Counted from the stretch's first letter, positions 2,436 to 54,620 are shown. The stretch is 64,000 nucleotides of DNA from an uncultured Holophagae bacterium (GCA_963710645.1 CAVQBD010000003.1:176450-240449); one strand, 5' to 3'. Notes: generated from the letters alone by a model not told the origin. Numbers and translations: made by a program.

Positions 2436-3419
2436 TCACTCCAGGGCGACCGGGTCCCACTCCGGGTCCGGGTTGTAGCGTTCCATGGCGCGGAACTGAT
2501 CGAGCGTGGTCGGCCCGAGGTCCTGCTCGTAGACGACACCGTCGTGGCTGACGATGAAGGTCTTCACTCCGGTCTCGCCGTAGTCCACCGGAGCGGCGGC
2601 GAGCGCAAAGCCGCCGATCATGGCGCCCCCGACTACGAAGTCCATCTCGCCCAGCGGCGCGGCCGGTCCCTGGCCCTTGAGAACCTTGAAGTAGTAGCCG
2701 TGGAAGGGGCTGGGCTCCAGTTCGTATCCCTCGGCAATGACTCGAGCAATCACCTCGCCCACCGGCCCTTGCCAGGTCCCGTCCGGGGCCTGCCACGCCA
2801 ATCCATCCTGCGTGCCCGGTGTGCTGATGATGCGGTGCGCATACTGGTTCACCAGAGCGCCGTCGTGTTTGACCAGGGCGTACTCGTGCTGGGCCTCGAC
2901 GTACCCGAGGCACACGTCGATGGCATCGAACTCGTTTCTTCCGACGCGGCGGTAGAGCAGCTCCTCACGGCCCGCCTCGACGTCAAACCTCCAGCGCCCA
3001 CCATCCTCGACGATCGGTATGGGCGCCGGCCAGTCCTCGGCGCCCACGGAGAGGATGGCGACCGTCGGGTTGTCGGGATCTCGGACAATCTCAGTCTTGA
3101 CGCCGGCCTGGGCCGCAAAGGCCAGGCTCAGGTTGCGGTCGTGAACCGGGTCGCCGCTGACCACCAGGTCGACGCCGTCCGGCCCCAGGATTCGGGTCAG
3201 CGACGCGACGTCGAAGCTTTCGGATGCGTTGATGAAGGCTGCGGCCGCTTTTTCGGGTGTTTTGAACGTCTTCTGTTTGACTTCAGAACTCGCGGTGTCT
3301 GCCGCAGCCGGCAGCAGAACGGCTGCGACCGCGATCCCAAGGCAGAGGCCGAGACGAGCCACACGGAGCCGACGCTGGATGGAATTCTGATTGCCGTTTG
3401 ACGATTTCATCATGTTCAT
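2436..3419 (-). CDS. DUF2950 family protein
   Basis: F.TPE.AA.A, WPAPIPIV, GREELLYRRVGRNE, PFHGYYFKVL, YGETGVKTFIVSHDGVVY; overlaps the DUF3300 stop. Confidence 0.9.
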   Translation of the reverse strand: MNMMKSSNGNQNSIQRRLRVARLGLCLGIAVAAVLLPAAADTASSEVKQKTFKTPEKAAAAFINASESFDVASLTRILGPDGVDLVVSGDPVHDRNLSLAFAAQAGVKTEIVRDPDNPTVAILSVGAEDWPAPIPIVEDGGRWRFDVEAGREELLYRRVGRNEFDAIDVCLGYVEAQHEYALVKHDGALVNQYAHRIISTPGTQDGLAWQAPDGTWQGPVGEVIARVIAEGYELEPSPFHGYYFKVLKGQGPAAPLGEMDFVVGGAMIGGFALAAAPVDYGETGVKTFIVSHDGVVYEQDLGPTTLDQFRAMERYNPDPEWDPVALE

Positions 3420-51241: not shown

Positions 51242-51958
51242 CTATTCCAGGGTTGACGCCACGTTTCTGAGGATCGTCGCCGGTTGATCAGTGATCATCC
51301 GGTGATGGGACACGATGATCCTCGACAGGTCTGGAGTGTCGGCCAGGCGTCTGAGGTGGGCGGCAAAGGCAGCCCGGTCCTTCACCGCGAGCCACCGGAA
51401 AAGCCGACTGACCCGGGGGCCGCCGGTGGAACAGGTTCCGTACCGGAAGAAGAGCCCGGCAACGCCCCGTCCGTGCGGCATGTTGAACAGAGCGTCGTTG
51501 AAGACCAGGGTGGTTCCACCTTGCGAACGCACCATCATCACGCCCTCGGATGAAGCAACACCGTCAAGAATCTCGAGGGACGCCGTATGCCCGCCGTCAA
51601 AGCCGTCGTATCCGGCATCCACCCGCACCACCTCCTCGATCTTCTTTCTTCCCCCCCTGGGTGCCCGAACCTCGATCTCCGGATAGCGCGCCACCCAGGC
51701 GGGCGCGTCAAGCCGGTGAAAGGCATTGGGAACCACCAGGACCGCGGGCCGTCCCCACGCCTCGATTTTGGCCATCGAAGGGTCGTCCAGGGCAATGGCG
51801 CTGTGGACGACGATGCGGCCATCCTTGAGCCGAACCAGGGTCATGACCCGCTTCAAGTCCATTTTGGGCAGGGTGCCCTGAACCCGCCACAGGTTGGTTT
51901 CCAGCTCCTCTATTGGCTGATGGGGCAGAACAGTCCACGTCGGGTTCGCCTTCGGCAT
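51242..51958 (-). CDS. DUF4336 / MBL-fold-like protein
   Basis: GAGGGAGG RBS; RVMTLVRL.DG..VVHSA, VVPN.FHRLD, IIVSH. Confidence 0.8.
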   Translation of the reverse strand: MPKANPTWTVLPHQPIEELETNLWRVQGTLPKMDLKRVMTLVRLKDGRIVVHSAIALDDPSMAKIEAWGRPAVLVVPNAFHRLDAPAWVARYPEIEVRAPRGGRKKIEEVVRVDAGYDGFDGGHTASLEILDGVASSEGVMMVRSQGGTTLVFNDALFNMPHGRGVAGLFFRYGTCSTGGPRVSRLFRWLAVKDRAAFAAHLRRLADTPDLSRIIVSHHRMITDQPATILRNVASTLE

Positions 51959-51979
51959 GACGGCCTCCCTCCTCCTCGA

Positions 51980-52630
51980 TCAGTCGGTGAGATGTGCGAG
52001 CACCTCGATGGTTTCCTCCGGCTCCGGCCGGCGGGTGTAGTCGGGATCCATGCGTGCGTAACGAACCACGCCGTCGGCGCCGATGATGTACCGCGCTGGC
52101 ATGGGCAGGGTCCAGCTGTCCTCCCCCTGGCCCTCGGCAAGATCTATCCCGAACCGCAGGTACAGCGCCTTCAGATCGTCGGGCAGTGACCATCGCAGTC
52201 CATACGCGGCGGCCACCTCGTTGCCCTTATCTCGCAGGACCTCGAACCGCAGCTTGTGTTTCTCTACAAAGCCGCGGCTCCTGTCCATCAACTGGGGTGA
52301 GACCGCGATGACGGTGGCGCCCGCCTCGGCGATTTTGTCGTATACCTTGTTTAGAGCATCCAGCTCTGCATTGCAGTATGGTCACCAATCGCCGCGAAAA
52401 AAGGTCAGCACGACCGGACCTCTGGACAACGCGTCGGCGAAAGCCGTCGGTGTTCCCTGGCTGTCGTTGAGGGTGAAGTCCGGAGCGCGCTGTCCCTCCC
52501 CCACAACTCCGTCCATGATGCCCGAGGCCCTCAGGCCATCGGTTGCGCCGTGCATGATTTCGAGCACCTCCGGCGGCGCCTGTTTCTCGAAGCCTTCTCT
52601 GATGCTATCCAGTCTTGCCTGCAACGACAT
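51980..52630 (-). CDS. AhpC/TSA peroxiredoxin-like selenoprotein (in-frame TGA = Sec, UxxC motif)
   Basis: ORFs 52382-52630 and 51980-52291 are in the same frame. Read-through gives APDFTL...GPVVLTFFRGDW-U-PYCNAELDAL...VIAVSPQ...WTLPMPARYII...DYTRRPEP, 216 aa. Confidence 0.92.
52342..52381 (-). promoter_or_regulatory. Putative bacterial SECIS hairpin
   Basis: Directly 3' of UGA: apical stem AGAGC-(UGGAU)-GCUCU starting 15 nt after UGA, with lower AUAC/GUAU pairing. Confidence 0.65.
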
Positions 52631-52761
52631 TCATGTCCTCCGATGGTCTTCGTTCTATTGTGCTGCTAAGAAGGCGCCGTCGAAGACCCGACGACAAATC
52701 ACGAGCAACACCGGTCACAACATCCGGGCCGAACAAGGTATTGCAGAGGATCCGCGGCCAA

Positions 52762-53634
52762 TTACCCGTGAAGGGCGTTCCACTCGGCGATCTTCTCCTG
52801 CAACCGCTGCTTCAATTCGTTTTTGGCAGCCTCCGCCTGCAGGTAGATCTCCTCAGCCCGGTGAAAGTGGAGGGTTCGGAATTCCCTCAACTCCGGTTTG
52901 ATGTAGATATCGGGTGCGTGGGCCTCGAGTTCGCGCTCCACAATGGCCTGCTGCATGATCTGGATCGAGCCGAAGATGTTGTTGAAGTAACCCGGCACCG
53001 ATCCGTACTCTGCCGCGCTGCCGGAGTTGATGTCGATGGCCACCACGATGTCGCAGGAATCCGTCAGCACGTCGTAGGGAACCGGGTTCGCGGTGCCGCC
53101 GTCGATGAGCACCCGCCCGCCGATCTCCACCGGCGGAAAGAGACCCGGCAGGGCCATGCTGGCCTGGACGGCGGGCTTGAGCGGCCCCGAATCGAGCACC
53201 ACAGTCCTCCGTTCCCAGAAGTCGGTGGCCACGACCTTGAACGGAATCGCGAGGTCCTCGAACGTCTCACACGAACGGTCCTGACAGAGTCCGGCCAGAA
53301 CCGTCTCGGCCTTGACCAAACCGCTGGTGCGGAAGCTGGGGTCGATGAGCCCAATCCACCGGCCGACCTTGCGATCGGAGAACACGCTTTTCACGGTGTC
53401 GCTCTGCAGGTAGGCGAAGTCCTTGATTGTCTCGCGTATCTCGGCGGCCGGCAACCCTGACGCGTAAAGCGCGCCCATGACCGCACCGATACTGGACCCG
53501 CTCACGCAGTGGGGCGTGATCCCCAACTCGTCGAGAGCTTCCAACATGGGGATGTGGGCCACGCCCTTGGCCCCGCCCGCTCCGAGTGCGATTCCTATTC
53601 TGGGCTCCCCGCCACTTTTCTTTCTCCCGGACAT
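52762..53634 (-). CDS. Patatin-like phospholipase
   Basis: ALGAGGAKG.AHI, GSSIG, ASMALPG.F, DGG..NPVP. Confidence 0.93.
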   Translation of the reverse strand: MSGRKKSGGEPRIGIALGAGGAKGVAHIPMLEALDELGITPHCVSGSSIGAVMGALYASGLPAAEIRETIKDFAYLQSDTVKSVFSDRKVGRWIGLIDPSFRTSGLVKAETVLAGLCQDRSCETFEDLAIPFKVVATDFWERRTVVLDSGPLKPAVQASMALPGLFPPVEIGGRVLIDGGTANPVPYDVLTDSCDIVVAIDINSGSAAEYGSVPGYFNNIFGSIQIMQQAIVERELEAHAPDIYIKPELREFRTLHFHRAEEIYLQAEAAKNELKQRLQEKIAEWNALHG

Positions 53635-53642
53635 TCAGGACC

Positions 53643-54356
53643 TCAGAGACTCGGCGGCAGCGGTGGTTTGGGACGCTTGAGCAGCGAGCGTCCAGCGACG
53701 AGGAGAATGTACACCAGGTATCCGGCTGACGAAGCGACCCCGGCGACGTAGGTCATGGCCGCTGCCCGCAAAACCTCCCGTGCACCCTCCTGCCCGTCGG
53801 CTGAAATGAGACCGAGTTTATCCAGCTGCCGGAGGGCCCGCTTGCTGGCGTTGAACTCCACCGGCAGGGTCAAAAACGTGAGCAGCATGGCGCCAGCGTA
53901 ACCCAGGATTCCGATCTGCACCATCGCGTTTGAGCCGAAGAAGCTCCCGGCGACCGCCAGCGGCAAGCCGAAACGGGCGCCCGCATTGGCGACCGGCACC
54001 ATGGCCGTCCGGAATTCCATCGGTCGATAATCATCCGCATCCTGGAGGGCGTGGCCGCACTCGTGCGCCGCCACGGCGGTCGCGGCGACACTGTTTCCCA
54101 CAAAGTTGTCGCGTGCGAGCCGCACATGTTTGTTGCGGGGATCGTAGTGGTCCGTGAGCTGACCCTGAACCGGCTCCACAGGAACGGACTGCAGCCCATT
54201 GGCGTCGAGGATGGTCCGTGCCACCCGACCTCCAGGTTCTCCGGTGACGCTCCGGACCCGGCTCCAACGGCTGTAGGTCGACTTCAGTTTTTGCCGGATT
54301 CCGAGAGAAAACACAAAGACTACACCGGCGATGACGTAATAGACGATCGTCTCCAT
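53643..54356 (-). CDS. Membrane zinc metallopeptidase (YugP-like)
   Basis: GQLTDHYDP, AAHECGHALQ, TLPVEFNASKRA, VL.AAAMTYVA. Confidence 0.92.
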   Translation of the reverse strand: METIVYYVIAGVVFVFSLGIRQKLKSTYSRWSRVRSVTGEPGGRVARTILDANGLQSVPVEPVQGQLTDHYDPRNKHVRLARDNFVGNSVAATAVAAHECGHALQDADDYRPMEFRTAMVPVANAGARFGLPLAVAGSFFGSNAMVQIGILGYAGAMLLTFLTLPVEFNASKRALRQLDKLGLISADGQEGAREVLRAAAMTYVAGVASSAGYLVYILLVAGRSLLKRPKPPLPPSL

Positions 54357-54620
54357 TTGCCCCAAACTCCTTCTGTCGACCGGTTCCCGGTCAGGGCATC
54401 ACGCTCTCCCGTGGTCGTCCCTACCTCATATCGATGCAAGTCAATCTACCACCGGAAGCCGGCGCCTACATCCCTCCAAACGGGTCAGAAACAAGAAATG
54501 CTGCCCGGACCTCCGCCGGTATCTGGTGACGCGCAGATTGCTCTTGTAAGCTGGGTCCTCATGTAGACCAACGAATCGTCTCAGGGTCACCGACCGGCAA
54601 CGACCGAAGAGGGGGAGATC

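Follow-up and report, generated by a model that had tools for sequence, protein, structure and literature searches.

Selenoproteins that join a peroxiredoxin (Prx) fold to a thioredoxin-like redox motif have been in print since at least 2005 (PMC1088965, PMC1794560, PMC2398784, PMC13188914). The Sargasso Sea study described a 'Prx-like protein' family that is distantly homologous to Prx and shows a thioredoxin-like UXXC motif where TXXU would otherwise stand, and it characterized the bacterial SECIS as a stem-loop directly downstream of the UGA, with a guanosine in the small apical loop (PMC1088965). A 2006 comparative study reported a 'Prx-like thiol:disulfide oxidoreductase' in Geobacter, Syntrophus, and Desulfotalea (PMC1794560), and the GOS study has an entry 'Prx-like 1, pfam00578, UxxC' with 225 selenoproteins (PMC2398784). 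A 2026 review gives the Prx-like family (PF00578; UxxC, UxxU) as 'predicted with high confidence' and holds a separate entry for a cd02970 'peroxiredoxin-like family protein' selenoprotein, which carries UxxS and not UxxC (PMC13188914). In the available text of this one review, 'Acidobacteri' and 'Holophag' have 0 occurrences.

Here we describe a gene in a 64,000-nucleotide stretch of DNA from an uncultured Holophagae bacterium (the window). We put at roughly 94% the probability that a single minus-strand gene at 52630..51980 encodes a 216-residue Prx-like UxxC (U83-P-Y-C86) selenoprotein, the UGA at codon 83 being read as selenocysteine (Sec) by means of a hairpin. The gene is a genuine, mis-called selenoprotein gene of a known family, and its main value is an annotation correction. 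The original prediction had termed this selenoprotein hidden, which holds for the annotation of this genome and does not hold for the family, already in print.

The reading frame across UGA83 and the fold of its product

The codons TTT CGC GGC GAT TGG TGA CCA TAC TGC, from which the prediction of a selenoprotein started, are present on the minus strand of the window, in a gene that fills precisely the predicted interval (Table 1). The frame reads ...V-V-L-T-F-F-R-G-D-W before the TGA and P-Y-C-N-A-E-L-D-A-L... after it, and translation confirmed the predicted 133 further open codons (84 to 216) of AhpC/TSA-like sequence, which run up to a terminal TGA. An ORF listing without recoding breaks the frame into two ORFs, of 82 aa and of 103 aa, the latter starting at TTG. 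Standard gene callers had been expected to split the gene, and the databases bear this out: they carry the 82-residue N-terminal fragment, as the representative of a seven-member cluster (NCBI, Logan, ENA), and lack the read-through product. Neither the 103-aa C-terminal ORF nor a full-length version with Trp read at the site was found among the protein records.

Table 1. Positions of the gene, its signals, and its neighbors in the window
Feature	Position	Strand	Remarks
Selenoprotein gene, complete CDS	51980..52630	minus	216 codons plus terminal TGA; frame open under TGA = U
Start codon ATG	52630	minus	Read from the sequence
Shine-Dalgarno-like GGAGGA	52636..52641	minus	5 nt upstream of ATG 52630; sequence reading only
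In-frame TGA, codon 83	52384..52382	minus	Proposed Sec, first position of UxxC (W-U-P-Y-C)
TGC, codon 86	52373..52375	minus	Partner (resolving) Cys of UxxC
SECIS-like core hairpin	52353..52367	minus	Stem starts 15 nt after UGA
Hairpin, 5' arm AGAGC	52367..52363	minus	
Hairpin, loop UGGAU	52362..52358	minus	
Hairpin, 3' arm GCUCU	52357..52353	minus	
Terminal stop, also TGA	51982..51980	minus	Seen in the frame translation
Next ORF, 238 aa	51958..51242	minus	ATG 51958, 21 nt past the stop, behind a strong GGAGG-rich stretch
Patatin-like phospholipase (PF01734, 2.1e-28)	52762-53634	minus	Upstream neighbor
Putative neutral zinc metallopeptidase (PF04298, 4.8e-76)	53643-54365	minus	Upstream neighbor

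The 238-aa ORF that follows the gene has no Pfam match at an E value of ≤0.001. This ORF, the patatin-like gene, and a 381-aa ORF recur only at the two loci that hold 88% orthologues (L024 and L151), where the counterpart of the 238-aa ORF is 80% identical. The zinc peptidase gene stands beside the orthologue at four metagenome loci (L139, L140, L143, and L148), with 35 to 39% identity. Comparison of the neighborhood across loci yielded no operon or functional partner to propose.

The read-through protein matched Pfam AhpC-TSA (PF00578) with an E value of 1.3e-31 (109.6 bits, where the cut-off is 26) over residues 46 to 191, a match that spans the UGA, and Redoxin with an E value of 6.9e-21. 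In an AlphaFold model built on 20 homologues (pLDDT 93.9, pTM 0.91), U83 caps the N terminus of helix 84-95 and stands directly behind strand 73-77, the classic site of the attacking Cys in a CxxC motif. The N terminus of the protein is modeled as an additional helical hairpin (residues 3 to 35), which sequence and model together predict to be amphipathic and to lack a hydrophobic segment. The closest Foldseek matches of the model are the BCP/PrxQ/AhpE peroxiredoxins and ResA, with E values of 1e-10 to 1e-13 and TM scores on the target of 0.8 to 0.9 (0.82 to 0.91 for the BCP/PrxQ/AhpE folds). In HMMER alignments to solved structures, U83 falls on the first Cys of ResA WCKPC, and C86 falls on the peroxidatic Cys of Aeropyrum BCP, in the SPVC motif of PDB 2cx3. 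C86 is invariant in an alignment of 19 homologues, and 17 of 17 Sec orthologues encode it as TGC.

The canonical peroxiredoxin active site is PxxxT/SxxC, with the peroxidatic Cys in the last position. If C86 is set at that position, R79 occupies the position of the Pro and U83 that of the Thr/Ser; the canonical peroxiredoxin motif is therefore lost. A search against NCBIfam returned 13 weak matches, all far below their cut-offs and including the SelL-related, PrxU, and WAxxUGC selenoprotein models, so that the gene is filed under none of these. Bit scores against cut-offs were 46.7/140 for BCP, 43.5/120 for SelL-related, 24.7/270 for PrxU, 57.2/170 for ResA, 27.8/123 for DsbE, and 23.8/230 for TlpA. 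Two established classes were considered on these grounds and rejected. A canonical peroxiredoxin (BCP/PrxQ or AhpC) is contradicted by the missing PxxxT/SxxC motif and by the BCP and PrxU scores; an extracytoplasmic oxidoreductase of the ResA/DsbE/TlpA type is contradicted by scores below the cut-offs and by the N terminus, with its lack of a hydrophobic segment. The gene had been predicted to be peroxiredoxin-like, and this description stands for the AhpC/TSA fold and fails for canonical peroxiredoxin function, the product being rather an oxidoreductase with a thioredoxin-like UxxC motif, built on a peroxiredoxin fold. From sequence, the protein is a predicted cytoplasmic Prx-like (AhpC/TSA fold) UxxC thiol:disulfide oxidoreductase. 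In such an enzyme U83 would make the attack, in the manner of CxxC thiol:disulfide oxidoreductases, and the protein would cycle between a selenolate/thiol form and an intramolecular selenenylsulfide, U83-C86. The substrate could be a protein or a low-molecular-weight disulfide, or possibly a peroxide.

Conservation of the TGA codon and of the downstream hairpin

A protein search found 2,380 homologues, and those aligned from the best 120 are full length, with 50 to 55% identity. Full-length homologues have 215 to 221 aa, and a single chain is the rule. In the alignment of 19 homologues the active site is WCPYC in 15 and WWPYC in 4 of the best matches (P0002, P0003, P0004, and P0009); the motif RGxWCPYC, named beforehand as that of the family, is seen in the Cys homologues.

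The codon itself was followed at the DNA level by six-frame searches that read through stops. Among 40 relatives we found 3 orthologues, with 88, 64, and 65% identity and one TGA each; the remaining 37 gave paralogue-level matches only, and these include 6 of the 7 same-genus genomes. The distribution of the orthologue is patchy: 1 of 7 other same-genus genomes, 2 of 17 other genomes of the family, and 0 of 16 in the sister family have it. A sample of the phylum contained a match at an E value of ≤1e-40 in 28 of 401 genomes. These matches fall at 29 places, of which 14 have an in-frame TGA, 14 do not, and 1 has TAA, and the TGA-bearing places include every match in the sample that covers the site with >45% identity.

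Either Cys or TGA had been expected at this column in homologues, and both occur. When 32 genome loci were scanned for the motif, this codon was TGA in 17 and TGC in 7, and the other 8 did not match the regular expression. Metagenome loci that are relatives of the WWPYC protein P0003 (L071 to L150) have TGA in 80 of 80 cases. The best 80 named-genome loci divide into 36 with TGA, 40 with TGC or TGT, and 4 without the motif, and more distant homologues have TGC or TGT at the TGA column. The idea that close relatives never have TGA here, which would have spoken for a lesion, therefore fails at 17/32, 80/80, and 36/80 of the loci surveyed. The records with TGA bear the titles Holophagae (88% identity), Desulfobacterales, Syntrophobacterales, Desulfoluna limicola, D. 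spongiiphila, Desulfofustis, Planctomycetota, and Rokuibacteriota; the Desulfoluna loci L179 and L181 share with the window gene both the TGA and the hairpin described below. After de-duplication the collection held 128 distinct Sec-form and 59 Cys-form proteins.

Two irregularities were noted in the course of these surveys. One locus (L047, G146:C260) was scored with two TGA codons and has 132 open codons after the Sec codon; the second TGA is probably its terminal stop, overrun by the alignment, and not a second Sec codon. At four cyanobacterial loci (L218, L227, L229, and L230) the Cys-form match extends over about 320 residues and contains both WCPYC and WCPWC, some 520 to 540 nt apart, which suggests a tandem or fused two-domain Cys form.

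The stem-loop AGAGC-UGGAU-GCUCU, with G in the loop, is present after the UGA as described in the original prediction. It lies within the CDS, where it also encodes (A)-E-L-D-A-L, and the GG of its loop is 21 to 22 nt after the UGA in the window gene. Taken by itself the hairpin is short, at 5 bp, and unremarkable: a single-sequence fold of the 71 nt after the UGA has a z score of -0.28, and 74 of 200 shuffled sequences fold at least as well. Because the window hairpin alone is at chance level, support was drawn from relatives instead. An outer helix, AUACU/GGUAU, which the single-sequence fold also predicts, is lost in the 88% orthologue and is hence unclaimed. A search of Rfam over positions 51800 to 52800 at an E value of ≤10 gave no match, and no curated RNA family covers the element. 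There is no hairpin of the conserved kind 3' of the terminal TGA.

Applied unaided to 17 orthologues, RNAalifold produced a 6-bp stem with the loop UGGAN, and the consensus hairpin [A/G]GAGC-UGGAN-GCUCU stands at a fixed distance from the TGA. In a seven-pair version of the alignment, 89.9% of cells pair, against 27 to 47% when the 3' arm is slid by 1 to 3 columns. Covariation in the stem is modest, since the stem hardly varies: three of the seven pairs are invariant and two show a double change, and column pair 19-37 is G-C in 4 sequences, C-G in 3, and unpaired in 10. In the 114 unique Sec sequences, the stem is complete (6 of 6 pairs) in 71 cases and one pair short (5 of 6) in 32; it is complete in 0 of 59 Cys sequences. 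Over a 28-nt region the mean minimum free energy is -7.95 kcal/mol in Sec forms and -3.63 kcal/mol in Cys forms, and that of the window gene is -6.7. The window hairpin itself makes 5 of the 6 pairs; the outermost position, paired in most relatives, is a C-A mismatch, and the core AGAGC/GCUCU is the canonical one. All Sec sequences counted contain GG or G in the loop, in agreement with the description of bacterial SECIS elements in PMC1088965.

Since the hairpin overlaps the conserved residues E-L-x-A-L, it owes part of its conservation to the protein. The choice of codons speaks to the rest. Among about 60 conserved residue columns in the 17 Sec orthologues, a single codon is used throughout (zero entropy) only at TGA83, TGC86, GAG89, CTG90, and GCT92; at every other Leu or Ala column 3 to 6 codons occur, with 1.1 to 2.4 bits, and GCT is otherwise rare. 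The residues E-L-x-A-L are encoded by 110 of the 114 unique Sec sequences, which use GAG in 110/110, CTG in 110/110, and GCT in 107/110. The same residues are encoded by 11 of the 59 Cys forms, and there GAA and GAG stand 6:5 and five Leu codons and three Ala codons are used. This codon-matched control, which comprises only 11 Cys sequences, argues that conservation of the putative SECIS goes beyond the protein level. The freezing of synonymous sites is the strongest evidence, read from sequence, that the predicted hairpin is real. A SECIS-like element directly 3' of the UGA had been proposed from the window, and the GG-loop hairpin kept across Sec orthologues, in frozen codons, upholds that proposal.

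Four Sec forms depart from the consensus. At loci titled Desulfofustis/Desulfocapsaceae or 'delta proteobacterium' (L180, L183, L184, and L187), the TGA is kept and the hairpin at the same distance is CCUUC-AGGU-GAAGG instead, around position 3243 of each locus and within codons for L-Q-V-K-A-L. The replacement hairpin in these four Sec forms argues that structure, and not sequence, is required, and a possible reading of these loci is that the SECIS was replaced in place.

Sec machinery and alternative readings of UGA83

If UGA83 is translated as Sec, the genome should encode selA, selB, selC, and selD, and all four were found, outside the window. In this genome, which is 94.3% complete, the curated cut-offs were exceeded by selA (490.3 bits), selD (365.8 bits), and selB (330.5 bits, or 357.9 when the C-terminal stretch is included). 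The tRNA-Sec gene (selC) scored 75.9 bits with Rfam and was called by ARAGORN as tRNA-SeC with anticodon tca (UCA). Residue 83 is almost certainly selenocysteine, and from sequence we infer how it would be inserted and used: UGA83 would be read by Sec-tRNA(Sec), which SelB, bound to the mRNA hairpin AGAGC-UGGAU-GCUCU 15 nt downstream, would deliver to the ribosome, and the residue would then enter the redox cycle outlined above.

Three further thioredoxin-fold genes in the genome have TGA at a redox position (contigs C9:1619864-1620322, C6:309681-309998, and C3:293303-293617, all on the minus strand), the last of them outside the window. These TGA genes are a membrane-anchored FYRGFW-U-PFC paralogue, a peroxiredoxin with DFTPT-U-SSE (TxxU), and a signal-peptide-bearing protein with WTDT-U-PGC.

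In principle the UGA could be read as one of the standard amino acids (Trp, Cys, or Gly), through a reassigned code or near-cognate read-through. Public collections seem at first sight to favor such decoding, in that four full-length family members (P0002, P0003, P0004, and P0009) have Trp at the Sec position. The DNA of the relatives of P0003 has TGA and not TGG in 80 of 80 cases, so that the W in those entries is a UGA mistranslated by the gene caller, a matter of calling convention. The gene for RF2 (prfB) is present, with 483 bits, and the gene under study is itself terminated by TGA. UGA thus serves this organism as a normal stop codon, which makes code reassignment unlikely. Standard decoding would moreover leave the full Sec machinery and a hairpin frozen at the RNA level without a role. 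We consider this explanation highly improbable.

A second alternative is that the gene normally encodes Cys here and that the TGA stems from a nonsense mutation, from a lesion in a pseudogene, or from a mistake in sequencing or assembly. Cys homologues at 50 to 55% identity are indeed abundant, and the databases do hold the 82-residue product that such a lesion would leave. The same TGA is found in independent assemblies, at the 17 genome, 80 metagenome, and 36 named-genome loci counted above; the frame downstream of it is intact and conserved as protein, and the hairpin is kept at synonymous sites. The 128 distinct Sec-form proteins exclude a sequencing error or a private nonsense mutation, and a lesion or error of any kind has an exceedingly small probability. 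The last alternative, two separate small proteins (the 82-residue N-terminal piece and a C-terminal piece made from an internal start) that associate or not, takes its support from the two ORFs found without recoding and has next to no credibility, given that the Pfam domain and the predicted thioredoxin fold cross the break, that the break would part the two redox residues of a CxxC-equivalent motif, that the 103-aa product is absent from the records, and that full-length single-chain homologues are the rule.

Distribution of the Sec form and comparison with known systems

For the history of the Sec/Cys exchange we built a quick maximum-likelihood tree from 187 distinct proteins, with the Sec/Cys site masked; the tree is unrooted and has many long branches. 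On its 187 rows the Sec/Cys label requires 3 changes, and starred branches force 2 of these; shuffled labels gave a mean of 50, with 0 of 500 shuffles as low. When the tree, with its many long branches, is midpoint rooted, the largest pure Sec clade holds 103 of the 128 Sec rows, and the group of the window gene lies outside it. Because of the long branches and the missing root, we draw from the tree no conclusion on a single origin or on transfer.

A tentative and, in our estimate, rather doubtful scenario is that the Sec form arose once or a very few times and moved between phyla (Holophagae-titled, Thermodesulfobacteriota, Planctomycetota, and Rokuibacteriota) with its 13-nt SECIS core (GAGCUGGANGCUC) almost unchanged, and that the Desulfofustis/Desulfocapsaceae lineage then swapped this SECIS for CCUUC-AGGU-GAAGG and kept the UGA. 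The 3 label changes against 50 and the patchy orthologues are compatible with a single origin and transfer and do not establish them. If the scenario is true, it shows a SECIS turning over in nature while its Sec codon stays fixed.

The correction turns a nameless 82-residue fragment and a piece of unannotated DNA into one complete redox enzyme and enlarges the selenoproteome of the organism. It also draws attention to a Sec subfamily whose members are still truncated in public protein collections or given Trp at the Sec site. The 114 distinct variants of a single SECIS, together with the replacement hairpin of one lineage, could be used to train or test programs that predict bacterial SECIS elements. 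General knowledge of selenoproteins is unchanged by these results, which will not surprise a specialist.

Four known systems are close enough for comparison. The SECIS of E. coli fdhF is, like the hairpin of the window gene, an in-CDS stem-loop directly 3' of the UGA with a small G-containing apical loop, but the sequence of the window hairpin is unrelated to any Rfam model.

The ResA/TlpA CxxC oxidoreductases and the BCP/PrxQ peroxiredoxins (4nmu, 2cx3, 5epf, and 3hjp) share the predicted fold of the window protein, with Foldseek E values of 1e-11 to 1e-13, and each shares one of its redox positions, the first CxxC Cys of ResA corresponding to U83 and the peroxidatic Cys of BCP to C86. The window protein differs from these groups in scoring far under the family cut-offs, in having no evident signal peptide or membrane anchor, in the absence of the peroxiredoxin motif PxxxT/SxxC (it has R79...U83..C86), and in the additional N-terminal helical hairpin at residues 3 to 35.

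Third are the Cys homologues named 'peroxiredoxin-like family protein', which presumably belong to CDD cd02970 (PRX_like2). They resemble the window protein over their full length (50 to 55% identity; 215 to 221 aa) and have the region of the N-terminal two-helix extension and the motif RGxW-C-PYCN. In contrast to the window gene, they have TGC or TGT in place of the TGA, and 0 of 59 have the full 6-bp hairpin.

The fourth system is the published family of Prx-like UxxC selenoproteins. Like the window gene, its members combine the PF00578 fold with UxxC and not TxxU, have abundant Cys homologues and a bacterial SECIS right after the UGA, and occur in deltaproteobacterial lineages; the present member differs in coming from Holophagae, a group that goes unmentioned in the cited descriptions of the family, as far as their available text extends. 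The families were compared by description, and on the evidence of domain, motif, and taxa we infer that the window gene belongs to exactly this subfamily. Five features by which a Prx-like UxxC selenoprotein is recognized are found at the locus, among its homologues, or in the host genome: PF00578 running across the UGA, the UxxC motif, a Sec/Cys pair among homologues, a SECIS-like stem-loop, and a host with selA, selB, selC, and selD.
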